DNA of 64,000 bases. Source: Vulcanimicrobiota bacterium (GTDB lineage: Bacteria; Vulcanimicrobiota; Vulcanimicrobiia; Eremiobacterales; Eremiobacteraceae). Below, piece after piece: positions 716-44,400 of the stretch. The stretch's first letter is position 1. Each line of letters begins with the position of its first letter. The notes beneath the pieces were generated by a model. It saw only the letters and a list, made by a program, of their open reading frames with translations. It was not told the origin of the DNA and did no database searches. Both the position numbers and the translations under genes were made by a program. Where the stretch lies: assembly GCA_963812135.1 (NCBI GenBank), contig CAWETU010000001.1, positions 1,120,001-1,184,000 on the forward strand, given 5' to 3'.

Positions 716-1947
716 AGAACGCTGATTTCGGCCGAATGAATTCGGCCGCTACAGGGGCCGGCGAAGTCGTCGTCATGAAGTTCGGCGGCTCGTCGCTCGC
801 GACCGAGGAATTGCGCAAGACGGCACTCGAGCGCGTGAAAGACGAGATGCGCAACGGCAAACGGCCGGTCATCGTCGTGTCGGCGATGGGCCGGCGGCCC
901 GACCCCTATGCGACCGATACGCTGCTCGGGCTCGCTTCCGCAAAAGTAGGCGCCAATCGGGATCTCCTCGCGTCGGCCGGCGAGTCGATCAGCGCGGCGG
1001 TGTTCGCGACGCTGCTCGAAAAGAACGGCATCCAAGCGCGCGCCATGACCGGACCGCAAGCGGGCATCCACACCGACAAGCGCCATGGCGAAGCGCGCAT
1101 CGTGCGCGTGGACCCGAACCCGGTGCGCTCGCGGCTCGACGCGGGCCTCACGCCGGTTGTGGCGGGCTTCCAAGGACTCTCGCCGGATGGCTCCATCACG
1201 ACGCTCGGCCGCGGCGGCAGCGATCTGACCGCGGTCGCGCTCGCGCACGCGCTCGGTAACGCCCGCTGCGAGATCTTCACCGACGTCGACGGCGTCATGA
1301 CGGCCGATCCGAAACGCGTCGAGGGCGCGCACACCGTCGACGCGCTGACCTTTGAAGAAGTCGACGAACTCGCCGCCAACGGCGCGACGATCATGCACGA
1401 CCGCGCCGCGCAGCTCGCGCGCGAAGAGCAAACGCCGTATTCGGTGCGCGGCCTGCACTCGGGATCGGGGACCGACATCGATACGGAGCGTCCGATCGCG
1501 CCCGGCAAGCCCGTCACCGGCGTCGCGACCATCACGGGCTACGCGTTCCTGCACGCCGTGCCGGAAGCCGCCGGCATGCCCGGCGGGTGGGAGCTCGACG
1601 CGCTCGGGAAGCTCAAAGACGAGCAGATCAGCATCGACTGCGTCAACATCAACCGGGCGGGGCTGTTCTTCTGCGTGCGCGGCGACGATCTGCATCGCGC
1701 GCGTTTAGCGCTCGAAAAACTCCCGGTTTCGCTGGGCTTCAGGCGCGACTGCGCCAAGATCTCAATCGTCGGCGCCGGCATGCGCGGCACCCCAGGCGTC
1801 ATGTTCGCCGTGGTGCGCGCGCTGGTCGACGCCGGCGTGCCGATCATCCACAGCACGGACTCCAACATCACGATCTCGATCCTCGTGCCGGGTGCCGACG
1901 CTCCCACCGCCGAAACCGCGTTGCACAAGCACTTCGAACTAGGGTAG
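712..1947 (+). CDS. lysC: Aspartate kinase (DapG/LysC-like, C-terminal ACT domains)
   Basis: MKFGGSSL, VVVSAMG, TTLGRGGSDLTA, TDVDGVMTADP, KISIVGAGM; GTG overlaps the asd stop (GTGA); ATG 736 is an alternative start. Confidence 0.93.
   Translation: MKNADFGRMNSAATGAGEVVVMKFGGSSLATEELRKTALERVKDEMRNGKRPVIVVSAMGRRPDPYATDTLLGLASAKVGANRDLLASAGESISAAVFATLLEKNGIQARAMTGPQAGIHTDKRHGEARIVRVDPNPVRSRLDAGLTPVVAGFQGLSPDGSITTLGRGGSDLTAVALAHALGNARCEIFTDVDGVMTADPKRVEGAHTVDALTFEEVDELAANGATIMHDRAAQLAREEQTPYSVRGLHSGSGTDIDTERPIAPGKPVTGVATITGYAFLHAVPEAAGMPGGWELDALGKLKDEQISIDCVNINRAGLFFCVRGDDLHRARLALEKLPVSLGFRRDCAKISIVGAGMRGTPGVMFAVVRALVDAGVPIIHSTDSNITISILVPGADAPTAETALHKHFELG
729..752 (-). repeat. GTAG-type REP-like palindrome inside the lysC 5' end
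   Basis: Reverse complement GTAGCGGCCGAATTCATTCGGCCG; differs from the copy at 43285-43308 only by one compensatory base-pair change. Confidence 0.8.
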
Positions 1948-1953
1948 GTGGAT

Positions 1954-2850
1954 ATGGCTCGCTTTGGGCCCGTCGTCACCGCGATGATCACGCCGATGAA
2001 AGATGACGGCGCAGTCGACTTCGCCGAAGCACGGCGGCTCGCCGGCTGGTTGAGCGAACACGGCAGCACAGGGCTCGTGCTCGCCGGCACGACCGGCGAA
2101 GCGCCGACGCTCACCGACGCCGAGAAGACCAAGCTCTTCGGCGAAATCGTCGCAGAAGTGGGCGGCCGCACCAAAGTCATCGCCAACACCGGCACCAACG
2201 ACACGCATCATTCGATCGAGCTGAGCAAGCGGGCGCAGGCATCGGGCGTCGACGCGCTGCTGCTCGTCGGCCCATACTACAACAAACCGCCGCAAGCGGG
2301 GCTCATCGAGCATTTCACCGCGATCGCGGATGCTGCTGACGTCCCCATCATGATCTACAACATCCCGGGGCGCACCGCGGTGAACATCCTGCCTGAGACG
2401 ATCGCGACGCTGGCCGATCATCCGCGCATCAACGGCGTGAAAGAATCCAGCGGCGACCTCATGCAGATCGCCGAACTGATCGCCAAGGTGCCCAAGGACT
2501 TCGACGTCTATTCGGGCGACGATCACCTGACGTTGCCGATCATGGCGATCGGCGGTTGCGGCATCGTCAGCGTGGCGAGTCACGTCGCCGGCGACGACAT
2601 CGCTGACATGTGCGATTCATTCGCGAGCGGCGACATGCCGCGTGCCGCTCAGCTGCATCAAAATCTGCTGCCTCTCATCAAGGCGCTGTTCGCGGTGACT
2701 AGTCCGATCCCGGTGAAGGCGGCTATGCAGCGTTTTGGGTTTATGACCGGCCGGTGCCGCCCACCGCTGTGCGAGCTGACGCCGGAACAGGAGCACGCGC
2801 TCGATCACGCGTTGCAACCGTGGCGCGCTCGAGTGCACTCAGCCGTATGA
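1954..2850 (+). CDS. dapA: 4-hydroxy-tetrahydrodipicolinate synthase
   Basis: TAMITP, GTTGE, PYYNKP, YNIPGRT, GVKES (Schiff-base Lys), YSGDD; alternative GTG start at 1948. Confidence 0.95.
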   Translation: MARFGPVVTAMITPMKDDGAVDFAEARRLAGWLSEHGSTGLVLAGTTGEAPTLTDAEKTKLFGEIVAEVGGRTKVIANTGTNDTHHSIELSKRAQASGVDALLLVGPYYNKPPQAGLIEHFTAIADAADVPIMIYNIPGRTAVNILPETIATLADHPRINGVKESSGDLMQIAELIAKVPKDFDVYSGDDHLTLPIMAIGGCGIVSVASHVAGDDIADMCDSFASGDMPRAAQLHQNLLPLIKALFAVTSPIPVKAAMQRFGFMTGRCRPPLCELTPEQEHALDHALQPWRARVHSAV

Positions 2851-3635
2851 GCACGCCCGGGCTCCAGAGCCCGGGACCCAGCCCGTCCGCGCAGGTTCCA
2901 ATCGCGTCCGAATCCGTCTTGATCCTCGGCTGCCGCGTCGATCGCGTCGACGCGACGGGCGCGCAAACGCGGATCGCCGGCTACCTCGGCCGAGGCACGC
3001 CCGCGCATGTCGTGACCCTTGGCGCCGAGATGGCCAATCTCGCGTACGGCGACGAGCGTTATCGCGGCGTGATCAACGCGGCTGATCTCGTCGTGCCCGA
3101 CACCATCGGCATCGTGCTCGCATCGCGATGGCTTCGTGCGCCGCTGCCCGAGCGCGTCGCGGGCATCGATCTGCTCGAGCGCGTATGCGCCGATGCGGCC
3201 ACGCAAGGACACTCGGTCTATCTGCTCGGCGGAGTGGAGGGAGCCGCTGCAGCGGCGGCCGCCTCGCTCGCACAGCGCCACCCTGGTCTGCGCATCGCCG
3301 GCACGGAGCATGGCTACTTCGACGAAGCGCAAAACGCGGCGGTAATCGAACGCATCCGTTCGTCCGGCGCGCGCCTCGTCTTCGTCGGTCTGGGGTTTCC
3401 GCGCCAAGAGTTCTGGATCCACGACAACCTCGCGCGCCTCGGACCCGTTGTCTGCATCGGCGTCGGCGGATCATTCGATGTCTTATCCGGCCGGTTGCCG
3501 CGGGCGCCGTTGGCCGTCAGGCGCGCCGGGCTCGAATGGCTCTATCGACTCGCACGCGAACCGCGCCGGTTCCGCCGCCAGCTCGCGTTGCCGCTGTTCG
3601 CGGCGCGTGCGCTGCGTCAGTCTTTGCGCGGCTGA
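2847..3635 (+). CDS. WecB/TagA/CpsF family glycosyltransferase
   Basis: ERVAGIDL, HGYF, VGLGFPRQE, GVGGSFDV, GLEWLYRL..EPRR; ATGA overlap with the dapA stop. Confidence 0.92.
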   Translation: MSTPGLQSPGPSPSAQVPIASESVLILGCRVDRVDATGAQTRIAGYLGRGTPAHVVTLGAEMANLAYGDERYRGVINAADLVVPDTIGIVLASRWLRAPLPERVAGIDLLERVCADAATQGHSVYLLGGVEGAAAAAAASLAQRHPGLRIAGTEHGYFDEAQNAAVIERIRSSGARLVFVGLGFPRQEFWIHDNLARLGPVVCIGVGGSFDVLSGRLPRAPLAVRRAGLEWLYRLAREPRRFRRQLALPLFAARALRQSLRG

Positions 3636-3671
3636 GTAGGCGCAGCGCACGGCCGAGTCAAATAGCGGCGG

Positions 3672-6332
3672 ATGAGCCGCTTGCGTTTACCGGCTATTGG
3701 TTTTCTGTTGGCCATCCTATTGGCCGGCCTAGCGCAACGCGGTAGCGCCGACACAGGCGACGCGGTGACCGCGACGCTGGATAACGGCCTGCGCGTCGTC
3801 ATCGTACGCGACGCGCTCGCACCCGTCGTCACGACCGAAATGAGCTACCTCGTCGGGTCGGTCGACGAACCCGATGGCGCGCCCGGCCTCGCGCACGCCC
3901 AAGAGCACATGATGTTCCGTGACAGCAACGGCTTGACCGGCGATCAGATCGCGGTCATCAGCAGCGCGATGGGCGGCAAGATCAACGGCGACACGCAACA
4001 GACGGTGACGCAGTTCATCTTCACGGTCCCGTCGGAAGACGTCGACGTCGCGCTGCACGTCGAGGCGATGCGCATGCGTGGGGCGCTCGACCCAGACGAT
4101 CAATGGAACGCCGAGCGCGGTGCGATCGAACAAGAAGTCGCGATGCGCCGTTCAAGCGCGCTGTATCGCGCGCGCGCCGAAGCGCTGGCCAAAGTGTTCG
4201 AAGGGACTCCCTATGCGCACGACGCGCTCGGCACCGCAAGCTCGTTCGAGAACATCAACGGTCTGTCGCTGCGCACCTTCTACTCATTGTGGTATGCGCC
4301 GAACAACGCGATCCTCGTGATTACCGGCGATGTCGATCCGGCAAAGACCCTCGCGCAAGTGCATCAGCTGTTCGACCCGGTTCCGAAAGTCTCGCTGCCG
4401 CGCCACGGCGATTTCCGTTTGAGCCCGCTCGTCGCGTCGACGGTGACCGAGCCGAGCGATCTGCCGTTCTCGATGGCGTTCGTCGCATATCGGCTGCCCG
4501 GCGTCGAGGACAAAGATTATGCCGCCGGTCAGATCCTCGGCGACGCGCTCGCCAGCCGGCGCGCCGAGTTCGCTCAGCTCGAGCCGCGCGGCAAGGCGCT
4601 GACCGCGAGCTTCATCTACGAACCGCTGCCCAAGGCCAGTCTCGGGGTGGCGTTCGCGGCGATCGGCCCGAACGGGGATCTCAAAGCGACGGCCGATACG
4701 CTCCAGACCCTCGGCGACACGTATGCCCGCGACGGCGTGCCGGCCGAACTGGTGGACGCGGCGAAACGTCATGAGGTCTTGGACGCGCAATCCGCACGCA
4801 GCTCTATTCCCGGCCTCGCGCAAGTGTGGTCGCAAGCGCTCGCGGTCGAAGGCCGCAACTCGCCGGACGAGGACGCGATGGCGCTGCAAGCGGTCACCGT
4901 CGCCGACGTCAACCGCGTCGCCAAACAGTATCTCAATCGCACGAGCGCGGTCGTCGCCATGTTGCAGCGCGCCCAAGACGCCCAGCCGATGTCCGGTCAA
5001 GAAGGCGGCGGTCTGGCAGAATCGTTCTCGCGCACTCCAGGCGCGCGCGTCGCGATACCGTCGTGGGCGCAAAAGGTGCTCTCGTCGCTGACGCCGGGCG
5101 TGTCGTCCATCGATCCTCACGACGAACGGCTGCCGAACGGCGTGCGGCTCATCGTGCAGCGCGAATCCTCCGGCCCGATGGTCTACATCGTCGGTCAGGT
5201 GAAGACGAATGAGAGCCTTGAGGCGCCGCCCGGCAAAGAGGGCGTCTCGATGCTGCTTGATGAGATGTTCTCGAACGGCACCACGTCGATGGATGAGGTC
5301 GCGTTTCTCAAAGCGCTCGATGACGCGTCGGCCACGCTCGACAGCGGCGGCACCTTCTCCATGCAGCTGCCGGTGACGACGTTTGACCAAGGCATGGCGC
5401 TGCTGGCCGACTCGCTCGAACATCCTGCGTTGTCCGATCGCGCGTTCCAGCGCTTGCACAACGAGCTCATCGCCGTGTTCGGACCATATCTGCAGCGCCG
5501 CGGCCTCAACGGCCAGCAGATCCTCATGCAACATCTCTATCCTGCCGGCGACGCGATGCAACGTGTGCCGACGATGCAGTCGCTGGCCAGCATCACCGCC
5601 GCCGACGTCCACAGCTACTATCGCAAAGCGTTTAGGCCGGATGAGACGACGATCGTCGTAGTCGGCGACATCGCGCCTGAGACCGCGCGCGCGTCCGTCG
5701 ACAAATGGTTCGGCGGTTGGCGAGCGGACGGACCGAAGCCGCGCGTGGATGCCCCGCCCGTTCCCCCGAACAAGGGATTTCGCGGCGTGTACTACTCGAA
5801 TTCGCTGCAAGACCAGGTGCTTGAAGAAGAGACGATCGGGTTGAACCGTTCCAGCGGCGACTACTATCCGTTGGAGGTGGGCAACCAGGTGTTCGGGCGC
5901 GTGAGCTTCACCGCGCGTCTCTTCCAAGACTTGCGCGTCGACCGTGGACTCGTCTACTACGTCGACGGCGAACCGGTCTACAACGGTTCGCGCGCGACGT
6001 ATCGGCTGCGCTACGCGTGCGATCCATCGAACCTCGCCGCGAGCGAGGAGGTCGTGCGGCACGACATCGAGCTGATGCAGACCACGCTCGTCGGCCAGCA
6101 GGAGCTACGCGAAGCAAAAGCGCTGCTGGAGCGGGAGATTCCGCTCGCCGAGGCGTCGGAAGAAGACATCGCCGCCGCGCTCACGGCGCGCGCGATCGAC
6201 GGCGTCGCGTTGGACGAGCCGAGCCAGGCCGCGCAACGCTATCTGCGCGTGACTCCCGAAGACATCCGCGCGGCGTTCGCCAAGTGGCTGTCCGCCGATC
6301 GCATGGTCGAGCTGGTCAGGGCGCCGCGGTGA
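3672..6332 (+). CDS. Secreted M16 family zinc metallopeptidase (two-half, PqqL-like)
   Basis: Signal peptide; inverted zinc motif HAQEH; two L(D/P)NG starts; WYAPNNA and FRPDETTIVVVGD repeats. Confidence 0.9.
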   Translation: MSRLRLPAIGFLLAILLAGLAQRGSADTGDAVTATLDNGLRVVIVRDALAPVVTTEMSYLVGSVDEPDGAPGLAHAQEHMMFRDSNGLTGDQIAVISSAMGGKINGDTQQTVTQFIFTVPSEDVDVALHVEAMRMRGALDPDDQWNAERGAIEQEVAMRRSSALYRARAEALAKVFEGTPYAHDALGTASSFENINGLSLRTFYSLWYAPNNAILVITGDVDPAKTLAQVHQLFDPVPKVSLPRHGDFRLSPLVASTVTEPSDLPFSMAFVAYRLPGVEDKDYAAGQILGDALASRRAEFAQLEPRGKALTASFIYEPLPKASLGVAFAAIGPNGDLKATADTLQTLGDTYARDGVPAELVDAAKRHEVLDAQSARSSIPGLAQVWSQALAVEGRNSPDEDAMALQAVTVADVNRVAKQYLNRTSAVVAMLQRAQDAQPMSGQEGGGLAESFSRTPGARVAIPSWAQKVLSSLTPGVSSIDPHDERLPNGVRLIVQRESSGPMVYIVGQVKTNESLEAPPGKEGVSMLLDEMFSNGTTSMDEVAFLKALDDASATLDSGGTFSMQLPVTTFDQGMALLADSLEHPALSDRAFQRLHNELIAVFGPYLQRRGLNGQQILMQHLYPAGDAMQRVPTMQSLASITAADVHSYYRKAFRPDETTIVVVGDIAPETARASVDKWFGGWRADGPKPRVDAPPVPPNKGFRGVYYSNSLQDQVLEEETIGLNRSSGDYYPLEVGNQVFGRVSFTARLFQDLRVDRGLVYYVDGEPVYNGSRATYRLRYACDPSNLAASEEVVRHDIELMQTTLVGQQELREAKALLEREIPLAEASEEDIAAALTARAIDGVALDEPSQAAQRYLRVTPEDIRAAFAKWLSADRMVELVRAPR

Positions 6333-6336
6333 TCGC

Positions 6337-8063: not shown

Positions 8064-8064
8064 T

Positions 8065-14497: not shown

Positions 14498-14973
14498 ACG
14501 TGAACGGCGTGTGCCTCACCGTTGTCCGCTCGCATAGTGGGAAACTCGAATTCGACGTCGTGCCCGAGACGTTGTCGCGCACGAATCTCGGTTCGCTCGA
14601 GCCCGGCGACGTCGTCAACCTCGAGCCGAGCCTGCGCCTCGGCGATCCGTTGGGCGGGCACATCGTCTACGGGCACGTCGACACCACGACGACGATCGAG
14701 AAGAAACTGCCCGAAGGACCAGGTTTTCGCATGTGGTGCTCAGTCCCGGCGAGCGTGAGGCCGATGATTGTAGCAAAGGGCTATGTGGCGCTCGACGGAG
14801 TGAGCCTCACGGTTGCCGAACTGAATACGAACCGGACGTCGTTCGCCGTCGCTCTCATCCCGGAGACGCTTGTGCGGACCAGATTCGGCAGCGCAGCCGA
14901 AGGCGACGTGGTGAACCTCGAAGTCGATCCGGTCGCGCGCTACGTCGCTGCGCTCCTCTCAAGCAAAGGTTAG
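14374..14973 (+). CDS. ribE: Riboflavin synthase (alpha chain), apparent ATC start
   Basis: (I)FTGLI at 14374 matches the conserved MFTG N-terminus; GGAGGT 6 nt upstream; SINVNGVCLT, NLE, GGHIVYGHVD, GVSLT, NLEVD. Confidence 0.9.
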   Translation: MFTGLISHEGTVVSVGSQAGARRLVIENAHVSQSETPGASINVNGVCLTVVRSHSGKLEFDVVPETLSRTNLGSLEPGDVVNLEPSLRLGDPLGGHIVYGHVDTTTTIEKKLPEGPGFRMWCSVPASVRPMIVAKGYVALDGVSLTVAELNTNRTSFAVALIPETLVRTRFGSAAEGDVVNLEVDPVARYVAALLSSKG

Positions 14974-14975
14974 AT

Positions 14976-16181
14976 ATGCCGCTCGCAAGCATCGAAGACG
15001 CCATCGCCGACATTCGCGCCGGCAAAATGATCGTCGTCATGGACGACGAGGATCGCGAGAACGAAGGCGACCTCACGATGGCGGCTCAGATGGTGACCGC
15101 CGATGCGATCAATTTCATGTCGAAACACGGCCGCGGTCTGATCTGCGTGCCGATCATCGGGCGGCGTCTTGACGAGTTGCACATCCCGATGATGGTGCAC
15201 GAGAACACGTCGCCGCTCGAGACCGCATTCACCGTCTCCGTCGAAGCAAAAGGCCGGACGACCACCGGCATCTCGGCACAGGACCGCGCCGCGACGATTT
15301 CGGCGCTGCTCGACCCGCGCTCCAAGCCGAGCGACTTCGTGTGTCCCGGCCACACCTTCCCGCTGCGCGCGCGCGAAGGCGGCGTGCTCGTGCGCGCCGG
15401 ACAGACCGAAGCCGGCGTCGATCTTGCGCAGCTCGCCGGTCTGTATCCCGCTGGCGTGGTGTGCGAGATCCTCGACGACGACGGGCGCATGATGCGCCGC
15501 CCGGCGCTCGAGCGTTTCTCGGCCGAACACGGGCTGAAGATGGTCACGGTGACCGACCTTATCGCCTATCGCATGCGCCACGAGAAGCTCGTGCAGCGCA
15601 TCGCGACTTTCAAAATGCCCACCCAGTTCGGCGATTTCACCGGCTACGCGTACGAATCGTCAGTCGACCACGCTTGTCACGTCGCGCTCGTCATGGGCGA
15701 GATCGGGGACGGCAAGGATGTGCCGGTGCGCGTGCACTCGGAATGCTTGACGGGCGATGCGCTCGGCAGCAAGCGGTGCGACTGCGCCGCGCAGCGCGAT
15801 GCCGCCCTTCAGATCATCGCCAAGTCTGGACGCGGCGTCTTCCTTTATCTTCACCAGGAAGGCCGAGGCATCGGGCTGGCCAACAAGCTGCGCGCCTATG
15901 AGCTCCAAGACAGCGGCGCGGATACGGTCGAGGCGAACCTCAAGCTGGGGCTGCCCGTCGACAGCCGCGAGTACGGCACCGGCTCGCAGATCCTGCACGA
16001 CCTCGGCGTGCGCGAGATGAAGATCATCACGAACAATCCGCGCAAGATCGTCGGGTTGGAAGGTTACGGCTTGAAGATGACCGGGCGCATACCGCTGATC
16101 ACCGACGGCGACGAGTACAACGCCGACTACTTGCGCGCCAAGAAAGAAAAACTCGGCCACCTCTTCGGGCCGCCCGCCTAA
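14976..16181 (+). CDS. ribBA: Bifunctional DHBP synthase / GTP cyclohydrolase II
   Basis: DDEDRENEGD, RVHSECLTGD..GS.RCDC, QEGRGIGL.NKL, TNNPRK. Confidence 0.96.
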   Translation: MPLASIEDAIADIRAGKMIVVMDDEDRENEGDLTMAAQMVTADAINFMSKHGRGLICVPIIGRRLDELHIPMMVHENTSPLETAFTVSVEAKGRTTTGISAQDRAATISALLDPRSKPSDFVCPGHTFPLRAREGGVLVRAGQTEAGVDLAQLAGLYPAGVVCEILDDDGRMMRRPALERFSAEHGLKMVTVTDLIAYRMRHEKLVQRIATFKMPTQFGDFTGYAYESSVDHACHVALVMGEIGDGKDVPVRVHSECLTGDALGSKRCDCAAQRDAALQIIAKSGRGVFLYLHQEGRGIGLANKLRAYELQDSGADTVEANLKLGLPVDSREYGTGSQILHDLGVREMKIITNNPRKIVGLEGYGLKMTGRIPLITDGDEYNADYLRAKKEKLGHLFGPPA

Positions 16182-16193
16182 ACGCCGTCCGCT

Positions 16194-16677
16194 TTGCGAT
16201 TCGCCGTCGTCAGAAGCCTCTTCAACGCGCAGGTGACCCAAGCGCTGCTCGACGGCGCCAAGCGCGGCTTTGCCGACGCCAAGATCGAGCAGGATCTGGT
16301 GGACGCCTTCGACGTCCCCGGCGCATTCGAGCTGCCCCTTGCAGCGTTGTGGCTGGCGCAGACCAAAAAGTACAACGCAGTGGTATGCCTTGGCTGTGTG
16401 ATCCGTGGGCAGACGCCGCACTTCGAGTATGTCGCGGCTGCAAGCGGCGCGCGGCATTGCAGATGTGGCGCTGCGCACCGGCATTCCGGTGATCTTCGGC
16501 GTGCTGACGACCGATACGTTGGAACAGGCGCTCGCGCGTGCCGACACAAGCGCGGGCAGCAGCGGCGGGCACGGCGCGGACGAACGGTCGACTAAAGCCG
16601 AGCGCTACAACAAAGGGTACGAGGCCGCGCAAAGCGCGATCGCCATGGCGCAACTGCGAAGGAAGTTCGACATCTGA
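16194..16677 (+). CDS. ribH: Lumazine synthase, split by a single-base insertion near 16441-16443 (probable sequencing error)
   Basis: [22 protein letters not shown] in one frame; [22 protein letters not shown] in the +1 frame. Confidence 0.9.
16585..16608 (-). repeat. Degenerate GTAG-type REP-like palindrome inside ribH
   Basis: Reverse complement GTAGCGCTCGGCTTTAGTCGACCG; lies in an extra loop between ARA and NKG. Confidence 0.62.
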
Positions 16678-19600
16678 TGGACGCGATCGACGACGCGAAG
16701 CTGCAGGCGATCCTCGCAGGCACCGCGCTCCACCTGCCGGGCGAGGGCGCCGATGACGCGCGCATCGTGCGCGCGGAGTGGATCATCGAAGCGGTGCGTC
16801 TTGGGATCGCCGTCGACATCGACAACGCGATCATCGCGGGACCGCTCGATCTCGAGGGCCGTTACATCCCGGCGCCGTTCTCGATCACCCACTCGCGCCT
16901 CGCCGGCATCTCATTGCGCGAGACGCGCTTCCTACAGCCCGCGCGCTTCGACGGAAGTGCGTTCGAAGGACGCGCGGAACTTCAAGGGCTGCGGACTGAG
17001 AGCGATGTCTCGTTCGCAGGCGCGCGCTTCAACACCGATATCGATCTGACGGGCGTCGCGGTCGGCGGCGCGCTCACGCTGACGGGTGTCGCGATCGCGG
17101 GCTCGATGACCGGCGCCGGCGCGCGATTGGTCGGCTCACTGCTCGCGACCGAGCTGAGCGTGCGCGGCGGCATCGCGCTCGATGAGCTGCAGGTCGGCGC
17201 CGATCTGATGCTCGACGGCGCGCGCGTGGACGGCGCCGCGCGTTTCCGCGAATTGTCAGTCATCCGCCATCTGAGCGCGAAGAGCGCGACTTTCAAGGGC
17301 GACCTCAGCCTCGAACGCGCGCAGGTCGGCGGGCAGCTCGACATGAGCGAGGCGACCTGCCGTGGGCGCGTGGTGTTCGCGGCGGCGCGCATCGCCGACG
17401 CGATGCTTGCCGGCGCCGCGGTCTTCGATGGCGACGTGAACTTCGACGCGGCGCAGCTGGGCGAGCTGACGCTGTCCAATATCTCGTTCCGAGGAGCCGT
17501 CTCGCTAAGAGAAGCGCGCGTCGCGCGCCGGTTCGTATGCCTTCAGACGAGTTTCGAGCGCGACGCGACCTTCATCGGGTTCGGCGCCGGCGGCGACGTC
17601 GATCTCGAAGACGCGTCGTTCAAGGGCGCGGCGCAATTCCGCGGCGTCGACATCGGCGGCGCGGTCGGCTTCGAATCCGCGAGCTTCGAGCAAGGCGCCG
17701 ACTTCTCCGAGGCACGCGTGGCCAAAGCGGCCGACTACACGCACGCGGTGTTCCGCGGCCCGGCGCTGTTCTCGAGCGCGCGCATCGGCCGGCTCGATCT
17801 CACCCGCGCGGTTTTCGAGAACGATATCGAGCTCGCCAACGTGCAAGTCGAAGGGCCCGTGTGCTTCGCGTGGACAAATTTCCGCGGCGAAGCGCATTGC
17901 CAGGGTTTGCGAGGCGGTTCCATCGCTGCCGCGCACGCGACGTTCGCGGGCTGCGCCGATCTCTCGGGCGTCGAAAGCGCGGGCGACCTCGACCTCGTTG
18001 GTGTATCCTTCGAAGGGGAGGCGCAATGCGCCAACATGTCGGTAAAGGCCGACCTCATCGCCACCGAATCGCGCTTCGCATCGGATGCGACGTTTGCCGG
18101 CGCGAAGATCGGCGGCACCGCGCGGTTCGAGCGCGCGGCGCATGGCGGGCCGGCGGTGTTCCGAGCGGTGGTGACCGGCGGCGCCTTCAACGCGGCGGGC
18201 GCGACCTTCGCGCGAGGCGTCAATCTCGGCGTGGCGCGTGTCGGCGGAGCGCTCGACTTCAGCGGAGCGCACGTGGCGGGCGAGGCGCAGTTTGGAGCGC
18301 TCACCGTGGGTGCCTTCCTGAACTGCGCCAACGCGGGGTTCGACGGCATCGCGGATCTGCGCTCGGCGCGCGTCGGAGGGACGGCAGCGTTCGTCAAGGC
18401 GGCGTTCGCCGGCAACGCGCTGCTCGACGGGCTTGAGACGCGCGGCGCGCTGGACCTGAGCGGCGCCGCGTTCCACGGCGAGTTGCGGTGCAACGACGTG
18501 ACGATCGGCGGCGCGCTGGCGGCAAGCGCGGCGATGTTTGCCGGGCCGGCGCTGTTCCATCGCGTGAGCGCCTCGCGCCGTGCGACCTTCGAGGGCGCGC
18601 GCTTCTCGCGCGGCGCCGAATTCTCAGGCGCGATCTTCGGCGAGGTGCTCATCGGCGCCACCGCCGCGTTCGGCGAGCGTGCCGACTTCGAAGGGGTGAA
18701 CGTCCGCGCGGACGTGGAGTTCGCGAACGCGACGTTTGCCGGCGATGCCCGATTCGACGCGATGCACGCCGGCGGACATGCCGATCTGTCAGGCTGCTCG
18801 TTCGGGCAGCGCGCGATCTTCGACGGCGCCGACGTTGGCGCGGATCTCTCGTTCGAGCGCGCCGCTTTCGCGGCTGAAGCGCGGTTCGTCGGCGCGCGCG
18901 TCGGCGGGCAAGCGATTTTCAGCGACGCGACGTTCGGCGCGCCGGTGGACTTGCGATGGATGCATTTCCGGCGCCTTGAGCTCGGCGAGCGAGCGACCGA
19001 GGTCGCTCGCGCTCCCAAGCCCGTCGGCCGATCCAACGGCGAGCTGGCGCAGGCGCCTGCGGCCCCCCGGTCACGCGATCGTGGGATCACGCTCGACTTG
19101 CGCGGCGGACATTTCACCGTCTTGCAATCCGCGGCGCACGCGCCGGATGAGAACGCCTTCCCCGCTAAACGCCTGGACAAGCCGGCTCGCGGTCAGTCGC
19201 AATCCGGCCGCGCGAATTCGCGCATGAGCACCGATGCGTTCTATCTGCGCCGCACGCTCGAGGGCGACGCGATCGATCCGCGACGCTATCCCGTTTTGTC
19301 GGCCGCGTTCTGGGCCGAGCTGCTGCGTTTGGTGGGCGACCGCACGGCGCGCACGATCACCGGCTATGGCGTACGGCCATGGCGTATGGCGTGGTGGCTG
19401 GTCATGCCTATTCTGCTCGCGACGCTTTTCTTCGTGGCTATTCCAGGCATGACCGTAGCGCCGCCGTCGATGAATCCGACGCCAGGCGCGTGCGACGCGC
19501 GACCGCCGGCGCTTGACGCGGCGGCGTTGAGCCTCGCTGTGTTCGCCTCGCTCGATCCAGCGCCGCTCACGGCGTGGCGCGTGTCGGCGTGCTCGATCGG

Positions 19601-28014: not shown

Positions 28015-29715
28015 CTAAAACGTCTTTCCTTGCAGCATGAGGAGATGTTCCACGATCGGGCCGAGCGCGTCGGCTGGGAAGAACGTGAGCGCGCCGACGA
28101 TGACGATCACGCCGAGGAGCAGGCCGACGAAGATCGGCGAGTGCGTCTGGAACGTGCCGGTGGTCTCCGGCGTCCGCGGCTTGCCGGCGAGCGATCCCGC
28201 CAGCAGCACCGCCGGGATGAGGAACAAGAATCTGCCGCACAGCATCACGACGCCCATCACGATGTTGAAGTACAGGTTGCCGCCCAGACCGGCGAACGCG
28301 CTGCCGTTGTTCTCGGTGGTCGACGTGAAACCGTAGAGCAGCTCCGAGAACCCGTGCGCGCTCGCGTTTCCGAGCGTGGCAGTACCGGCCGGCACCAACA
28401 CCGAGATCGCGACCGGAATAAGCGCGAAGAACGGCAGCACGAGTGCTCCGAGGATCGCGAGCTGCACTTGGTTGCGCTCGATCTTCTTGCCGAGATACTC
28501 AGGCGTGCGCCCGACCATCAGTCCGGCGATGAACACCGTGAGCACGACGAAAAGGATCATGCCGTACAAGCCCGTGCCGACGCCGCCAAATACCACCTCG
28601 CCCAACTGCATGTTCACAAGCGGCACGAGGCCGCCGAGCGGCGTGAACGAGTCGTGCATCGAGTTGACCGCGCCGCACGACGTATCCGTGGTGACCGTCG
28701 CGAACAGCGAAGATGCGCCGATGCCGAAGCGGCACTCTTTGCCTTCCATGTTGCCGCCGGCGACACCGAGCGCGTGAACCGTCGGATTGCCCGCTGCTTC
28801 AGCGGCGTACGCGACCGCGAATCCGGCGGCGAACAGGATCGCCATCGCGACGAACAGCGCCCAGCCCTGGCGCTGATCCTTCGCGTAGCGGCCGTAGGTG
28901 TACGTCAGCCCCGCGCCGATCGCGAAGATGAGGAACATCTCGAACAGGTTGCTGAACGGCGTCGGGTTCTCGTTGGGCGACGCGGAGTTCGCGTTGACGA
29001 AGCCGCCGCCGTTGGTGCCGAGCTCCTTGATCACTTCTTGCGACGCCATCGGCCCGCCGGTCAGCGACTGCTTGAAGCCTTCGATCGAGGCGACGTCCTG
29101 ATAGGAATGGAAGTTCTGCGGCACGCCCTGCCACACGAGCAGCAGACAGCCCACCACGCTGATGGGCACTAAGATGTAGAGCGCCGCGCGCGTGACGTCC
29201 ACCCAGAAGTTGCCGACCGTCGTCTTATCCGTGCGGCACACGCCGCGGATGACCGCGATCGCGATCGTGATGCCGACCGCTGCGGATGCGAAGTTGTGCC
29301 AGGCGAGACCGGCCATCTGCGAGAGATAGCTCATCGTGCTCTCGCCCGAATAGAACTGCCAGTTCGTGTTCGTCGTGAAGCTGACCGCGACGTTCCAGGC
29401 GTTGTCTGGGGTGAGATTGTCGAAGTGTTGCGGATTGAGCGGCAGCCATTTCTGAGTGCGCAGCAGCGCGTACAGATATGCGAGGCCGACGAGGCTAAAC
29501 GCGAGCGTTGCGAGCAAATAGGATGCCGCCGACATCTCCTTGGCCGGGTCGACGCGACACATGCGATAGATGAGCCGCTCGACCGGCGCGAGCACAGGCG
29601 TCAGAAGGGTGCGCCCGCCCTCGAACACGCGCTCCATGTACGATCCAAGCACGGGCGTGACCAGCACGACGAGCGCGAAAAAGACGAGGGCCTGAAGCCA
29701 GCCGTAGACGCTCAT
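28015..29715 (-). CDS. kdpA: K+-transporting ATPase subunit A
   Basis: SFTTNTNWQ.YSGE, KELGTNGGG, GAVNSMHDS, GRTPEYLGKKI, NNGSAF. Confidence 0.98.
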   Translation of the reverse strand: MSVYGWLQALVFFALVVLVTPVLGSYMERVFEGGRTLLTPVLAPVERLIYRMCRVDPAKEMSAASYLLATLAFSLVGLAYLYALLRTQKWLPLNPQHFDNLTPDNAWNVAVSFTTNTNWQFYSGESTMSYLSQMAGLAWHNFASAAVGITIAIAVIRGVCRTDKTTVGNFWVDVTRAALYILVPISVVGCLLLVWQGVPQNFHSYQDVASIEGFKQSLTGGPMASQEVIKELGTNGGGFVNANSASPNENPTPFSNLFEMFLIFAIGAGLTYTYGRYAKDQRQGWALFVAMAILFAAGFAVAYAAEAAGNPTVHALGVAGGNMEGKECRFGIGASSLFATVTTDTSCGAVNSMHDSFTPLGGLVPLVNMQLGEVVFGGVGTGLYGMILFVVLTVFIAGLMVGRTPEYLGKKIERNQVQLAILGALVLPFFALIPVAISVLVPAGTATLGNASAHGFSELLYGFTSTTENNGSAFAGLGGNLYFNIVMGVVMLCGRFLFLIPAVLLAGSLAGKPRTPETTGTFQTHSPIFVGLLLGVIVIVGALTFFPADALGPIVEHLLMLQGKTF

Positions 29716-29725
29716 GCCGGCGCTC

Positions 29726-31366: not shown

Positions 31367-32463
31367 GCGGTTCGCCCGCCGAGCGGCGCACGCCGCACAT
31401 CGCCTACGAGCGCGGCGTGCTGCGGATCGTCGATCAGACCAAGCTGCCCGAAAGCGTCGAGGTGCTCTCGCTCGACTCCGCTCCTGCGGTCGCTGAGGCG
31501 ATCCGCGCGATGCGCGTGCGCGGCGCGCCGGCGATCGGCATCGCGGCGGCGTACGGCTTGGCGATCGCGTCGCTGGACGCGGCGGCGAAAGCGGACAGCC
31601 CCGATCACTTCCTCGGGCTCCTCTCGGACGCGGCGCAGGTGCTTGCCACCGCGAGACCCACCGCGGTGAATCTCACGTGGGCGGTCAACGGGTTGCTCAA
31701 CGAGGCGAAACGAGAGATCAACGCCGGCAACGCGCCGGCCGCCGTCGCCGCTCGGCTCGAAAAACACGCGGTACTGCTGCACGAAGAGGACGTCGCCGCG
31801 TGCCGGCGGATCGGCGACGCCGGGGAGGCGTTGTTGCCGGACGGCGTGACCGTCCTGACGCACTGCAACACAGGCGACTACGCGACCGGCGGCTATGGTA
31901 CCGCGCTGGGCGTGATCCGCTCGGCGTGGCGCTCGCGCAAGCTGCGCGCAGTGTTCGTCAACGAGACGCGCCCGCAACTTCAAGGCGCGCGGCTCACCGC
32001 ATACGAGCTGTTGCAAGACGGCATACCGTTCACGCTGATCGCCGATGTCATGGCCGGTCACTTCATGCGCCGCGGGGAGATCGGGGCCGTCGTCGTCGGC
32101 GCCGACCGCATCGCGACCAACGGCGACACCGCGAACAAGATCGGCACGTATTCGCTGGCGGTGTTGGCGCACGAGAACGGCATCCCGTTCTACGTCGCGG
32201 CACCGCGCTCGACGTTCGACCCCGATCTCGCGTCGGGCGACGACATCATCATCGAAGAGCGCGACCCCGATGAAGTGCGCACCGTCCGCGGTGTTGCGTT
32301 GGCGCCGGCGCAGACACCCGTGGCGAATCCGGCCTTCGACGTGACGCCGGCGCGTTACATCACCGCGTTCATCACCGACAACGGTGTGCTCCAGCCGCCG
32401 TACCAAACATCGATCGCCGCAATGCTCGAAGCCGGTCAGCTTTCGGAGACGCATGCCCGCTAA
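31363..32463 (+). CDS. mtnA: Methylthioribose-1-phosphate isomerase
   Basis: VRGAPAIG, RPTAVNL, THCNTG..AT..GTALG, ETRP.LQGARLT, GADRI..NGDTANKIGT, NPAFDVTP. Confidence 0.95.
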   Translation: MSGSPAERRTPHIAYERGVLRIVDQTKLPESVEVLSLDSAPAVAEAIRAMRVRGAPAIGIAAAYGLAIASLDAAAKADSPDHFLGLLSDAAQVLATARPTAVNLTWAVNGLLNEAKREINAGNAPAAVAARLEKHAVLLHEEDVAACRRIGDAGEALLPDGVTVLTHCNTGDYATGGYGTALGVIRSAWRSRKLRAVFVNETRPQLQGARLTAYELLQDGIPFTLIADVMAGHFMRRGEIGAVVVGADRIATNGDTANKIGTYSLAVLAHENGIPFYVAAPRSTFDPDLASGDDIIIEERDPDEVRTVRGVALAPAQTPVANPAFDVTPARYITAFITDNGVLQPPYQTSIAAMLEAGQLSETHAR

Positions 32464-33475: not shown

Positions 33476-33489
33476 ACCCACTCAAGCCG

Positions 33490-33519: not shown

Positions 33520-33545
33520 CCACGATTTGAATAGGTCAGATAGGC

Positions 33546-33575: not shown

Positions 33576-33601
33576 GTCAAGTGACCAAGGCGTGTGACTA
33601 A
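33573..33601. promoter_or_regulatory. Candidate TetR operator
   Basis: Inverted repeat TTAGTCA-ag-TGACCAA (33573-33588) over the -10/+1 region plus extra half-site TGACTAA (33595-33601). Confidence 0.5.
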
Positions 33602-33657
33602 CCCGGTATGGGGTGAACAAGCCTCTGGTTTCCCACTGCCCAAAAGGAGAGGTCAAA

Positions 33658-34383: not shown

Positions 34384-34386
34384 CAC

Positions 34387-35175: not shown

Positions 35176-35213
35176 CGGTCCGGACGAGCAACGCACTAGC
35201 GGAGGACCTGACC

Positions 35214-38961: not shown

Positions 38962-39249
38962 CTCAGAGCACTCGGGGACCGTCGCGAGCGGCACGTATTC
39001 GCACGCCTCGTTGAAGCGCCCCCAGAGCTTGGCCACCTGTGGATTCGAATGCGCCTGCTCGATCGCCTCATCCGACTTCCACTCAAAGACTTCGACGATC
39101 GTGCCGTCCTCCGCGCGCATCGCCTGCGCCGGACGGTTGGTGATGAGGTTCTCGGCGCGCAACACCGCCATGTGATCGGTGACGGCGTCGAGCAGCAATG
39201 TCTCCTTGCCCTTGCGCGGCCGATATGCCGCAATTGAAAATACACCCAT
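38929..39249 (-). CDS. Small hypothetical protein, probable dimeric alpha-beta barrel (ABM-like)
   Basis: 106 aa; YRP..GKE, VEVFEW.S.EAI..AH..P.V..LW pattern. Confidence 0.65.
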   Translation of the reverse strand: MGVFSIAAYRPRKGKETLLLDAVTDHMAVLRAENLITNRPAQAMRAEDGTIVEVFEWKSDEAIEQAHSNPQVAKLWGRFNEACEYVPLATVPECSELFANFEPLDV

Positions 39250-39307
39250 GCGTGTGAACGTTCGCCCAAAAGGGCGTTCGCGTCCCGCGACGAACGAGCA
39301 AAGTACC

Positions 39308-40726: not shown

Positions 40727-42000
40727 TGAAAAAAGGATCGGAAGTCGCGCGCGGCAAGACCAAAGTGCTCTACCAGCATCCGGATCAACCGGACGCGGTG
40801 ATCGTCTCGTCACAAGACAGCATCACCGCCGGCGACGGCGCGAAGCGCAATACCATCGAGGGCAAAGGGCGCCTCGCCGCGCTGACCACGGCGCGCATCT
40901 ACCGGCTGCTCAATGCGTGCGGTTTGCCGACCCACTATCTCAGCGGCGGCGAAGACGAAGACGGCAACGAGATGATCGTGCGCCGCTGCGAGATGATCCC
41001 GATCGAAGTCGTCGTACGCGGGGTCGCCGCCGGTTCGTATCTCAAGCGCAACCCAGGCGTCAAAGAGGGCACGGTGTTCGCCCCACGTCTCGTCGAGTAT
41101 TTCTTCAAAGACGACGCGCGCCACGACCCGCAGTACACCGCAGAGCAGATCATCGTCGAGAACCTGGCGACGCCGGCCGAGCTCGTCGAGATGACCGACA
41201 TCGCGCGGCTCGTCTTCGAGATCCTCGGTCATGCGTGGAAACTGCAGACGGTGCTGCTCATCGACCTCAAGGTCGAGTTCGGACGCTGCAAAGCGGCCGA
41301 CGGCACCACGCAGATCCTGCTCGCCGACGTCATCGACAATGACTCGTGGCGCATCTGGCCGGGCGGCGACAAAGAGCGCATGCTCGACAAACAGATCTAC
41401 CGCAATATGGCGACGCCCAAAGACAGCGAGCTGAGCCTCGTCAAGGAGAAGTACGAAGAGGTCGCCGAGCGGGTCGCGCAATTCCAGAAGAGCATCGGCG
41501 GATTCGTCGCCATCATCATGGGCTCGTCGGCGGACGCGGCGCATGCCGAGCGCATCGGCAAAGCGCTTTCCGCGTTCGGCATTCCGAGCACCAAGCACGT
41601 GGCGTCGGCGCACAAGACGCCACTGTACGCCCTGGCCCGCGTCCAGCAGACGGACAGCGCCATGGGTCACGTCGTCTATATCACGATCGCGGGGCGCAGC
41701 AACGCGCTGTCGGCGTTCGTCGACGCGGCGACGCCGAACCCGGTGATCGCGTGCCCGGTCATCGGCTCGAACTGGGCGGGAATGGAAGTGCTCTCCAGCC
41801 TGCAACTGCCCTCGGGTGTGGCGAGCGTCGTGGTGCTCGAGCCTGAGAACGCCGCGCTGGCGGCGGCCAAGATCCTTGGCGTGGACGATACGGTTCTGTA
41901 CGGCAGGGTGCTTGTGTCGCAGTACCGCAGCCGGCGTAACGTCATCGATTCGGACGCGCGGCTGAGCGCGCCGCCCGGCAACGGCAAAGCGGGCGCGTGA
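40723..42000 (+). CDS. purC: Bifunctional SAICAR synthetase / AIR carboxylase (PurC::PurE, PAICS-like)
   Basis: GKTK, TAGDG, IPIEVVVR...GSY.KR, D.KVEFG, DVIDNDSWR.W, DKQ; C-terminal IIMGS.AD, SAHKT, AGRSNAL, PVIACP. Confidence 0.92.
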   Translation: MMKKGSEVARGKTKVLYQHPDQPDAVIVSSQDSITAGDGAKRNTIEGKGRLAALTTARIYRLLNACGLPTHYLSGGEDEDGNEMIVRRCEMIPIEVVVRGVAAGSYLKRNPGVKEGTVFAPRLVEYFFKDDARHDPQYTAEQIIVENLATPAELVEMTDIARLVFEILGHAWKLQTVLLIDLKVEFGRCKAADGTTQILLADVIDNDSWRIWPGGDKERMLDKQIYRNMATPKDSELSLVKEKYEEVAERVAQFQKSIGGFVAIIMGSSADAAHAERIGKALSAFGIPSTKHVASAHKTPLYALARVQQTDSAMGHVVYITIAGRSNALSAFVDAATPNPVIACPVIGSNWAGMEVLSSLQLPSGVASVVVLEPENAALAAAKILGVDDTVLYGRVLVSQYRSRRNVIDSDARLSAPPGNGKAGA

Positions 42001-44400
42001 CGGAAGGCGTTTCGTACTCGGCTGAAAAGCTCGCCGTCAGCGGCGCAGGAGACGACCAATTGCAGCGCCTCGCCCGCAGCGAGGCGCTTGCGCTTTCTGC
42101 CTCGGAACTCCGCGACATCGCGCAGCGCATCGGCCGCGATCCGACGCGCGCCGAGGCGCACGCATTTGCGATCCAGTGGAGCGAGCACTGCTCGTACAAG
42201 AGCAGCCGTCCTTTGTTGAAGCGGCTCCCCACGCGCAGCGCCGACGTGCTCGTCGGCGTCGGTGAGGACGCCGGCATCTTGCGCGCGGGCACTGTCGACG
42301 GCGTCGAGTATGGCGTCGTGGTCGCACACGAAAGCCACAACCATCCCTCCCAGGTCGTGCCGTTCGAGGGCGCGGCGACGGGCGTCGGCGGCATTCTGCG
42401 CGACGTGCTGTGCATGGGCGCGGAGGTCGTGGCCAGCGCGGATCCGCTGCGCTTCGGGCCGATCGCGGCGGGTTCGCATGCGGCGTATGTCGCGGCCGCG
42501 GCGGTCGATGGGATTTCTGCGTACGGCAATGCGGTCGGCGTGCCGAACATCGCCGGCGACGTCTACTTCCACGAGTCGTTCGCCGAGAATTGCCTGGTCA
42601 ACGTCGTCGCGGTCGGCACCGTGCGGGCCGATCGCATCATCCACAGCCGCGTGCCGCCCGACGGCGCCGGCTACGATCTCGTACTGGTGGGCAAGGCGAC
42701 TGATGCATCGGGCTTCGGAGGTGCCGCGTTCGCATCGCTCGTACTTGACGCGTCGCTCGCACAGGCGAACAAGAGCGCCGTGCAAGTGCCCGACCCCTTT
42801 CTCAAGAGCGTGATCATGCGCGCGAGCTATGCGGTTTTCGAAGAGGTACGTGCGCGCGGACTCCAGGTCGGCTACAAGGATCTGGGCGCAGGCGGCATCA
42901 TGGGCAGCTCGTGTGAGATTAGCGCCGCGGGTGGTTTCGGTGCCCAGATCGACATCGACGCGGTGCCGCAAGCAATCGCCGGCTTGCCGCCATTCGTGCT
43001 CGCGTGTGCCGAGACCCAAGAGCGCATGCTCTGGGCCGTGCCCCCGACGTTCACGCCGACGCTGTTGAAGATCTACAACGAACAGTTCACGTTGCCGGAA
43101 GTGTCTTCGAACGCTCGCGCCGCGGTGATCGGCAAAGTCACCGCTGAGAAGCGGTATGTCGTCCGCTCGGCCGGCGAGGCCGTCATCGACGTGCCGATCG
43201 ACGTGTTGGCCGGTCCGATCGTTGTGCAACGCACTGCGGCGCCTGAAAGTAGCGGCCGAGTTTACGCGGCTGGTTCCAGTGAAGGTAGCGGTCGAATTCA
43301 TTCGACCGGTCGAGCAAGCTCGACCGGTACGACCCTCTTGGAGGTGCTCGCTCATCCCGACGTCTGCAGCCGGCGGCCGCTCATCGAGCATTACGACCGC
43401 TTCGTGCGCGGGGCGACCGTCATCCCATCCGGTTACGCCGACGCCGGCGTCTTCATCATCAAGCGCGGCGCGCGCGCCGGCATCGCGCTTTCGGTCGATG
43501 GCAATCCACGCTATGGCGCGCTCTCAGCCAGACTCGCCGCCGCGCACGCCGTGGTCGAGTCAGCTCGCAACGTCGCTGCCGTCGGGGCGCAACCGATCGG
43601 CCTCACCGATTGCCTCAACTACGGGAATCCCGAAGATCCCGTGGCGTACCGCCAGCTCGTCGACGGCATCGAAGGACTTGCAGAAGCCGCCAACGCGCTG
43701 CAGCTCAACGAGGCCGGCGAGCCGCTACCATTTGTGAGCGGCAACGTCAGCTTATACAACGAGTCGGCGGCGGGCGCATCCATCGCACCGTCGGCGATTG
43801 TCGCATGCGTCGGGCGCGTGGACGACATCGGTAAGGTCGTGACCATGAAGCTGACAGGCGCCGGTAAGCACTTGTTCCTGTTCGGGCGGCGCACGCCGAA
43901 TCTAGCAGGCTCAATCCTCGAAGCGCTGGGGCGCGCGACATCGGGCGCGGACGAGTTGCCGCCGCTCGACTATGCTGAAGCAAACGCATCGATCCGGGCG
44001 GTCGTCACCGGCATCCGGCGCGGCGCCATTAGTGCAGCGCACGATATCTCGGACGGCGGTCTGCTCGCGTGCGTCGCGGAGATGTGCCTGGGCGGCGACG
44101 CCGATGGGACGATCGGCGCGCATATCGATGATCCGGGCGAATGGGCGCCCGGCTTGCCGCCTGATGCGGCGCTCTTCGGCGAGACGCCAGGGTTTGTGGT
44201 CGAGGTCGCCGCTCGATCAGCTAGCGGCATTCCACGAGATATGCAAGAGCGTTGGTGCGGACGCGATGCTCATCGGCGCGATCGGCGGCGCTCGCATCAT
44301 CGTCGAGGGGGCCGAATGCGACGTCGCGCTCAGCGACGCGGCAAACGCCTGGAGCGCGACGCTTGAGGGAGCTCTATGCCTGACCCAAAAGTCGCTGTGA
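41997..44400 (+). CDS. purL: FGAM synthase large subunit; single-base insertion near 44209 (probable error)
   Basis: WSEHCSYKSS, ESHNHPS, GAATGVGG, DLGAGG, ETQERM, TDCLNYGNP, SGNVSLYN, HDISDGG, LFGE; natural C-terminus continues in +1 frame. Confidence 0.93.
43249..43330. repeat. Cluster of three GTAG-type REP-like palindromes inside purL (one decayed copy plus an inverted doublet)
   Basis: 43249-43272 GTAGCGGCCGAGTTTACGCGGCTG; 43285-43308 GTAGCGGTCGAATTCATTCGACCG; 43307-43330 reverse complement GTACCGGTCGAGCTTGCTCGACCG. Confidence 0.82.

Follow-up and report, generated by a model that had tools for sequence, protein, structure and literature searches.

A 24-nt GTAG-type REP family with in-frame copies inside core enzyme genes of a Vulcanimicrobiota bacterium

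Five 24-nt palindromic units lie within lysC, ribH and purL in a 64,000-nt stretch of a Vulcanimicrobiota genome, referred to here as the window (C1:1120001-1184000; genome G000, 2.79 Mb in 6 contigs, 64% G+C, 98.4% complete). We interpret these units as copies of one GTAG-type repetitive extragenic palindromic (REP) family that have been tolerated in frame and are read as short inserts, and we place the probability of this reading at about 85%. If it is right, an uncultured soil lineage has had loops and linkers in at least 20 of its core enzymes reshaped by a selfish hairpin of 24 nt.

The repeat is a GTAG-type REP family

Genome-wide information content defines a compact unit of 24 nt with random flanks, consensus (T)GTAGCGGTCGAATTTATTCGACCG(t), which is composed of a GTAG tag, an 8-bp stem and a 4-nt loop. 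The first-pass annotation of the window had proposed a mobile palindrome of the pattern GTAGCGGYCG-N8-CGRCCG, and further copies proved to be numerous: the genome holds 130 exact matches to that pattern and, at ≤6 mismatches to the consensus, 222 non-overlapping REP loci spread over 4 of the 6 contigs. The mismatch scan behind these loci returned 57, 48, 39, 36, 33, 55 and 73 matches at 0 to 6 mismatches (341 raw), and the identical scan of a second-order Markov control genome returned 0, 0, 0, 0, 0, 0 and 3. The tag GTAG is kept at 174 of the 222 loci, with GGAG the next commonest variant (17).

The hairpin itself is conserved, as had been proposed from the lysC copy and the central purL copy, which differ only at positions 8 and 21, a compensatory exchange of C-G for T-A. 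Genome-wide, each of the eight stem pairs is Watson-Crick in 195–211 of the 222 loci, and two of them covary (pair 8-21, TA 190 and CG 15; pair 12-17, AT 163 and GC 38). Intact copies fold as DNA hairpins at −8.5 to −9.8 kcal/mol, with z-scores of −4.8 to −6.1. The consensus is free of stop codons in four of the six reading frames, and its 24 nt correspond to exactly eight codons.

The repeat is therefore a bona fide GTAG-type REP family by its tag, covarying hairpin, high dispersed copy number and predominantly extragenic location; a cognate REP-associated tyrosine transposase (RAYT) gene flanked by the REP, a further feature of such families, was not found in G000. Most loci are singletons. 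Neighbors ≤120 nt apart form 25 direct pairs and 3 inverted pairs, so the inverted doublet is not the unit here as it is in a REPIN, and the purL pair at 43285/43307 is among the few inverted ones.

Copies in lysC, ribH and purL

All five units reported by the first-pass annotation were recovered. Those at 729-752 (−) and 43285-43308 (+) fit its pattern exactly, and those at 16585-16608 (−), 43249-43272 (+) and 43307-43330 (−) carry 1 mismatch each. At ≤2 mismatches the window contains 7 matches to the pattern against 1.23 expected, a number reached in 0 of 100 shuffles; the matches at 28885 and 54300 (2 mismatches) were rejected as family members, being absent from the ≤6-mismatch hits to the genome consensus. 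A clean DNA hairpin with an 8-bp stem and a 4-nt loop is formed by three of the five copies (729-752, 43285-43308 and 43307-43330; 0 of 200 shuffles as good), and the other two, the one in ribH and the first in purL, are decayed, their folds being no better than those of shuffled sequence. The peptides named earlier are all present (GRMNSAAT in lysC, RSTKAERY in ribH and SGRIHSTGRASST in purL), and comparison with congeners (G001, G002, G003, G005 and G006) bears out the placement of the copies at termini or loops, namely the LysC N-terminus, a RibH loop and a PurL linker. An Rfam scan of the whole 64-kb window found no family at gathering score, including upstream of the riboflavin genes at ~12.5–16.7 kb.

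The aspartokinase gene lysC (AA_kinase and ACT domains) runs from a GTG start at 712 to 1947 on the + strand. This GTG overlaps the TGA of the upstream open reading frame (ORF; TGA at 713-715), and a Shine-Dalgarno-like AAGGTGG lies at 701-707. In five of five congeners the gene starts at the same position, with the same 4-nt overlap on the upstream stop. Across the six genomes of the genus, the gene has an ATG or GTG start followed by K, an AGGTG-type Shine-Dalgarno motif and an open frame, and the extension that precedes VVMKFGG measures 7, 7, 13, 13, 21 and 18 codons, always in frame. The REP copy GTAGCGGCCGAATTCATTCGGCCG (729..752, −) has 3 mismatches to the consensus, including the compensatory pair, and a perfect 8-bp hairpin. 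It forms codons 7-14 and is read on the + strand as GRMNSAAT, in the antisense frame that gives GRINSTAT from the consensus. G001 has a different REP copy at this place, and G005 and G006 have none. Following the conserved GTG start at 712, the lysC copy is predicted to be coding.

The lumazine synthase gene ribH (DMRL_synthase; 16194..16677, +) is interrupted by a single additional base near 16439, which divides it between two frames. The protein has a genus-wide extra loop between ...AG and NKGYEAA, and it is there that the decayed copy of the window, GTAGCGCTCGGCTTTAGTCGACCG (16585..16608, −; 4 mismatches, weak hairpin), is located and read as RSTKAERY. In the same loop G001 has a perfect copy (GRINSTAT) and a second copy with 4 mismatches, and G002, G003, G005 and G006 have none. 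The REP region at 16560-16649 is confirmed by near-identical short-read contigs of run X1 (1–2 differences), and the extra base (16430-16445) is missing from run X3, in a contig from a related strain that shows 17 differences in 386 nt.

The purL gene, encoding an FGAM synthase subunit (41997..44366, +), carries its REPs at residues 418-445, in a hypervariable inter-domain linker that is of similar length in all 13 orthologues aligned; no result rests on row L020 of that alignment. The first copy (43249..43272, +) is decayed, with 6 mismatches, and is read as SGRVYAAG. The second (43285..43308, +) is near consensus, with 1 mismatch and a perfect hairpin, and is read as SGRIHST. The third (43307..43330, −), of the GAGCTTGCTC loop subtype, has GTAC replacing GTAG and 5 mismatches, keeps a perfect hairpin, is read as GRASSTGT and overlaps the second by 2 nt in inverted orientation. 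The linker thus holds copies in the order +, +, − in G000, one perfect antisense copy and a remnant in G006 and an inverted pair in G005; the linkers of G002, G003 and G004 are without REPs. The final ~50 codons of purL do not share the frame of the orthologues, owing to at least one indel after ~44215 (about 44215-44400). Single-base indels in both ribH and purL relative to five congeners suggest a systematic indel error rate in the assembly.

Presence and absence at orthologous sites

Comparison with related species supports the view that the palindrome has entered coding DNA in frame and adds peptide loops to proteins, as had been proposed for the three genes of the window, and extends this to five more. 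In all eight host cases (PurL, RibH, LysC, NuoC, CarB, ValRS, FabH and the E2 linkers) REPs are found in REP-rich species and none in G002 and G003; the REP-poor congeners have unrelated sequence at the same loops and linkers. NuoC carries a perfect copy at the same loop in G000, G005 and G006 and unrelated sequence in G001–G003. The copy is identical at 24 of 24 positions in the three species, as against 394 invariant columns among the 519 that flank it, and the peptide it encodes stands opposite a gap in the solved homologue, Thermus Nqo5 (chain 2fug_5). In FabH, REPs occur in G000, G005 and G006, and 30 residues stand in place of 6 in the solved FabH chain 4ryb_A. ValRS displays a clean presence/absence of 7 residues, with an antisense copy in G000 and G001, a sense copy in G005 and none in G002 and G003. 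In CarB, a copy on the same strand is read as ERSNSFDR in G000 and as SGRI(H/Y)ST in G005 and G006. The E2 linkers of G000 contain five copies, read as VEQARPLQ; those of G005 and G006 have copies in the GRINSTAP frame, and those of G002 and G003 have none.

The age of the copies was assessed by mapping 30 perfect copies of G005 and G006 to G000. Of these, 28 mapped and 27 were retained once L157 had been dropped for unreliable flanks; L152, whose flank mapping is also unreliable, was counted as occupied on REP presence only. The corresponding sites in G000 were occupied in 18 cases and empty in 9, three of the empty ones lying in the window: at 14955..14974, an intergenic spot where G006 has a perfect REP, at 32378..32453, where G006 again has a perfect REP, and at 62687..62712, where G005 has a perfect REP and a half-copy. 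The occupied orthologous REPs differ by 16 mismatches in 432 nt (96.3% identity) and their flanks, which are mostly coding, are 72–90% identical (~81%), a comparison that is biased by the choice of perfect copies in the relatives. Judged by these alignments, most copies would predate the species splits and yet stay near the consensus. Hairpin constraint, gene conversion or re-insertion are possible causes of this persistence.

One intergenic site, C1:639268-639291, has a perfect REP in G000 and, as locus L145, in G005, in opposite orientations, the hairpin keeping its place and GTAG lying on the other side. It is placed between the stop of one gene and the ribosome-binding site of the next, and ValRS shows the same flip between G000 and G005.

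Genomic position and further hosts

Gene positions were taken from a home-made, crude codon-likelihood gene finder (2,628 genes, 88.7% coding), on which all of the following position counts depend. Of the 222 loci, 106 are intergenic, 45 lie over a gene edge, 25 are within 60 nt of a gene end and 46, termed deep copies below, are further inside ORFs. Intergenic or edge-straddling loci therefore number 151, though only ~11% of the genome is non-coding, in keeping with the typically extragenic location of REPs that the first-pass annotation had cited; 71 are wholly within predicted ORFs. The annotation had also recognized no intact intergenic copy, which is correct for the window and, with 106 intergenic loci, not for the genome. 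At gene ends the repeat supplies stop codons, through the TAG of GTAG in 27 genes and through the loop TAA on the opposite strand in 11.

A strict intragenic set, restricted to copies at least 60 codons from both gene ends in genes with a strong score, comprises 28 copies in 17 genes. The set gives a minimum and leaves out ribH, NuoC and a triple array at C1:2159925-2160026. Among 20 deep hosts scanned, 19 have ordinary Pfam domains flanking or around the REP: SelB, an ETF subunit, a PMT-type glycosyltransferase, a ferredoxin, NuoC, an HhH-GPD glycosylase, a rubrerythrin-VIT1 fusion, FabH, a TPR protein, CarB, ValRS, an E2-E1 2-oxoglutarate dehydrogenase fusion, CysRS, an amine oxidase, a DUF255 thioredoxin-like protein, a UvrD-like helicase, a class A penicillin-binding protein (PBP), an AMP-binding enzyme and an RluD-like pseudouridine synthase. 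About 12 of the REP sites fall between or beyond the Pfam envelopes and about 7 inside them (NuoC, CarB, PMT, amine oxidase, PBP, AMP-binding and RluD). Tandem copies within genes are spaced at 27, 33, 36 or 39 nt. The 2-oxoglutarate dehydrogenase gene (C1:1750082-1754122) is an ORF of 1,346 aa with lipoyl, E3-binding, acyltransferase and E1 domains, and the Pro/Ala-rich linkers of this E2-E1 fusion are made largely of five REP copies at 39-nt spacing.

Frame and orientation bias

The frame that gives GRINSTAT, antisense to the gene, accounts for 28 of the 46 deep copies (binomial test against 0.25, p = 3e-7), for 14 of 28 in the strict set (p = 0.004) and for 9 of 18 when counted by gene (p = 0.02), statistics that are affected by the non-independence of copies sharing a gene and by uncertain start codons. 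Overall, 36 deep copies are antisense and 10 are sense. The sense frame SGRIYST is nearly a mirror of GRINSTAT and equally hydrophilic, yet it is used by only 4 of the 46, and for this reason the bias looks more like an orientation effect than like selection on the peptide; we regard it as a lead only. Five of the eight GRINSTAT codons are rare in this genome, whose third codon positions have a G+C fraction of 0.83: ATA makes up 2.9% of its synonymous set, CGA 6.1%, GCT 5.5% and GGT 11%.

Relatives and RAYT genes

Among 30 relatives, the family is abundant in three of the six congeners (pattern matches: G001, 20; G005, 46; G006, 52) and absent or nearly so in G002–G004. A loop variant, GTAGCGGYCGCGCTTGCGCGRCCG, has 244 copies in G015, which belongs to another genus (g10) of the same family. 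Matches to Y1_Tnp, the RAYT domain, are found in 11 of the 31 genomes. In G015, a RAYT-like ORF is bracketed by inverted GTAGCGGYCG...CGRCCG copies of the sister variant, the arrangement of a classical REPtron. The first-pass annotation had looked to a RAYT gene flanked by the same repeat; none was found in G000, and G015 provides one for the sister variant only.

The sole RAYT-like gene of the genus lies in G001 (L009, G001:C3:118200-121500, at 1349-1982). It is bracketed by a different REP, TGTAGGGGCCGATCTTTAGATCGGCCC, of which G000 has no full copy.

Strand asymmetry and other palindromes

On C1, REP orientation changes along the contig, with 43 plus and 37 minus copies below 1.2 Mb and 10 plus and 100 minus copies above it; in G005, one strand of the contigs carries 18 of the 19 perfect copies. 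Gene orientation does not explain the asymmetry. The REP strand switch is at ~1.1–1.2 Mb, and the gene-strand bias switches near 0.33 and 1.55 Mb, not coinciding with it. As to a link between REP orientation and replication, GC skew on C1 is too weak for an origin or terminus to be located.

G000 has a second GTAG REP family, (T)GTAG-N-ACCCGAGCG(C/A)AGCTCGGGT, with ~28 loci (56 strand-wise palindrome matches), for example at C1:86267, 604197, 1025417, 1841104 and 1944445. The rejected pattern match at 54300-54323 (−) is an isolated GTAG with a 6-bp hairpin, GTAGCGCCCGATGCACAGCGGGCG (−7.7 kcal/mol, equalled by 4 of 200 shuffles), in the ORF 53691-55154. It is outside both REP families and may be due to chance.

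Interpretation and alternatives

The course of events that we envisage begins with RAYT-type (Y1 HUH) single-strand transposition, from which the copies would have arisen. This origin draws on what is known of Escherichia coli REPs and on the sister variant that flanks a RAYT-like gene in the related genus. Copies landing in coding DNA would survive only if their length or array spacing is a multiple of three, if the frame is open and if they sit at a surface loop, an inter-domain linker or a terminus. Surviving copies would be translated as short, mostly hydrophilic inserts, such as GRINSTAT, SGRIYST, VAVEFIRP and RSNKFDRY, and these inserts would be near-neutral.

Several findings weigh against this account. 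Translation of the inserts is a step that we infer, and contigs of RNA run X18 occur at 16150-16264 and 16628-16700 only, not spanning the ribH REP. Translation of lysC could instead begin at a conserved ATG at 775, past the REP. Many of the copies called deep are 23–40 codons from a start predicted by the crude gene finder and may be extragenic, and ribH and purL carry frameshifts in this assembly that, if real, would make them pseudogenes. Nor was a transposase found: a six-frame Pfam search of G000 with PF01797 gave 0 matches, where its control fired in 6 of 14 genomes, and none was found in G005 or G006, two congeners that share the family. When eight HxH-motif ORFs from loci of the relatives, six of them RAYT-like, were used as tblastn queries on G000, there were two hits; one (29% identity, E 3e-4) was rejected as spurious, since it falls within an ORF for a GT4-type glycosyltransferase, and the other belongs to a query that is a non-RAYT ORF of L009. 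The genes between inverted REPs in G000 encode MreB, an SPFH/Band 7 protein and a glyoxalase fragment, none of them transposase-like. Lastly, the excess of REP over flank identity and the retention of rare codons are not predicted by pure neutrality. As no RAYT gene was found in G000, current mobility is unsupported and the present copies would be mostly inherited. The word mobile, used in the first-pass annotation, would describe the history of the family and not its present state, in which about two-thirds of the tested sites are shared with sister species.

The conservation of the copies raises the question of whether they are neutral passengers at all. Nucleotide-level selection might keep them as RNA or DNA hairpins at domain boundaries, acting in translational pausing, mRNA stability or the binding of gyrase or another protein, or REP arrays might have been recruited as flexible linkers. 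The occupancy of 18 of 27 orthologous sites at 96.3% identity, the invariant NuoC copy, the persistence of the rare GRINSTAT codons and the location of many copies exactly in inter-domain linkers (purL, E2, ValRS, CysRS, SelB and rubrerythrin-VIT1) would all fit. The relatives' perfect copies were chosen by design, however, and gene conversion among ~200 copies could equally explain the conservation, as could repeated insertion at the same site, given that orientation differs at ValRS and at an intergenic site. Linkers are in any case the most permissive sites, REP-poor congeners manage without REPs, and a function of the peptide is at odds with the reading of the same element in different frames across species (CarB and the E2 linkers). 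We consider selection of this kind unlikely. Active maintenance of intragenic REPs at the nucleotide level in a genome without a RAYT gene is likewise doubtful; were it true, it would imply either that dispersed hairpins are homogenized independently of a RAYT, through gene conversion, or that the hairpin serves a function within mRNAs at domain boundaries, and the antisense GRINSTAT excess would be its footprint.

The in-frame appearance could also be an artefact of annotation, with copies in 5′ leaders, assembly-fused genes or spurious ORFs. To this would belong the 11 of 46 deep copies that lie 23–40 codons from a rule-chosen start, the unreliable ORF boundaries that result from assembly indels, the internal ATG that LysC keeps at 775 and the published judgment that most N-terminal REPs are probably not codogenic (PMC3733652). 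It is very improbable as a general explanation: purL, ribH, NuoC, CarB, ValRS, FabH and the E2 fusion have conserved protein and Pfam matches in the same frame on both sides of the REP, and the lysC start, its Shine-Dalgarno-like motif, the 4-nt overlap and the in-frame extension are common to six genomes. Similarly, ribH and purL might be decaying pseudogenes and as such uninformative about tolerance in functional proteins, considering the +1 frameshift near 16439 in ribH and the last ~50 codons of purL. Yet the extra ribH base is missing from the related strain of run X3, both genes have their full length apart from the indels, with 80–86% identity to intact congener genes that also have REPs, and 17 other hosts are intact, which leaves little room for this explanation.

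The preferred reading, REP copies tolerated in frame, carries a warning for annotation: a gene that bears a REP should not be taken for broken, nor the residues that the REP encodes for homologous protein sequence. The copies further amount to a natural experiment that marks positions of LysC, RibH, PurL, FabH, ValRS, CarB and NuoC accepting 8–30 extra residues.

Comparison with known systems

GTAG- and CGTC-tagged REP superfamilies were described by Di Nocera, De Gregorio and Rocco (2013, BMC Genomics 14:522; PMC3733652). By their account, REPs are found wholly inside ORFs in several species, most of all in Opitutus terrae, where single or grouped units encode 7–30 residues; the TAG of GTAG supplies stop codons, and N-terminal intragenic cases are doubtful. 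The O. terrae hosts in Additional file 3 include phosphoribosylformylglycinamidine synthase, two E2 subunits and an NADH dehydrogenase subunit, together with helicases, UvrA and tRNA-modifying enzymes. Short intragenic repeats of Rickettsia conorii are identified there as RPE-4 and RPE-6 and filed as CGTC-tagged. The family of G000 resembles these GTAG REPs in its tag and short GC-rich hairpin, in its hundreds of mostly intergenic copies with an intragenic subset and in the kinds of genes that act as hosts. It differs in stem and loop sequence, the main text of the paper containing no ‘GGTCGA’ or ‘GTAGCGG’ string, and in belonging to a soil lineage, in a genome where no RAYT was found and with copies that are mostly single or in direct tandem rather than inverted dimers. 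The first-pass annotation had held that in-frame palindromes are known mainly from Rickettsia, which understates the published record: PMC3733652 already reports many intragenic GTAG REPs.

Rickettsia palindromic elements (RPEs) are alike in standing in frame in still-functional genes, where they add peptide segments, selfish DNA being tolerated in loops (Ogata et al. 2000/2002, as cited in PMC3733652). In-frame insertion is found here in eight hosts, so the G000 family works in an RPE-like manner. It is not a member of that group, for its unit is 24 nt and GTAG-tagged, and RPE hosts are obligate intracellular alphaproteobacteria. RPE-1 measures ~100–150 bp, far longer than 24 nt.

With REP/RAYT systems and REPINs (Nunvar 2010, PMC2817692; Bertels and Rainey 2011, PMC3116915), the family shares GTAG and a hairpin, the REPtron that G015 has for the sister variant and vertical inheritance at orthologous sites; it differs in that no RAYT was found in G000, G005 or G006 and in the rarity of inverted doublets.

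Intragenic GTAG REPs and the donation of TAG stops have been in print since 2013 (PMC3733652), and the principle of in-frame palindromes since 2000 for Rickettsia. In the consulted passages of PMC3733652 we found no mention of a preferred frame, nor of intragenic copies being conserved between species, and literature searches gave nothing on this REP sequence or lineage or on frame bias, which is not proof of absence. Two points are possibly new, namely the GRINSTAT frame bias and the much higher conservation of REPs than of their flanks where sites are orthologous. Set beside the known systems, this family is a well-resolved new case, and it adds two quantitative leads, a bias of frame or orientation and conservation without a RAYT.

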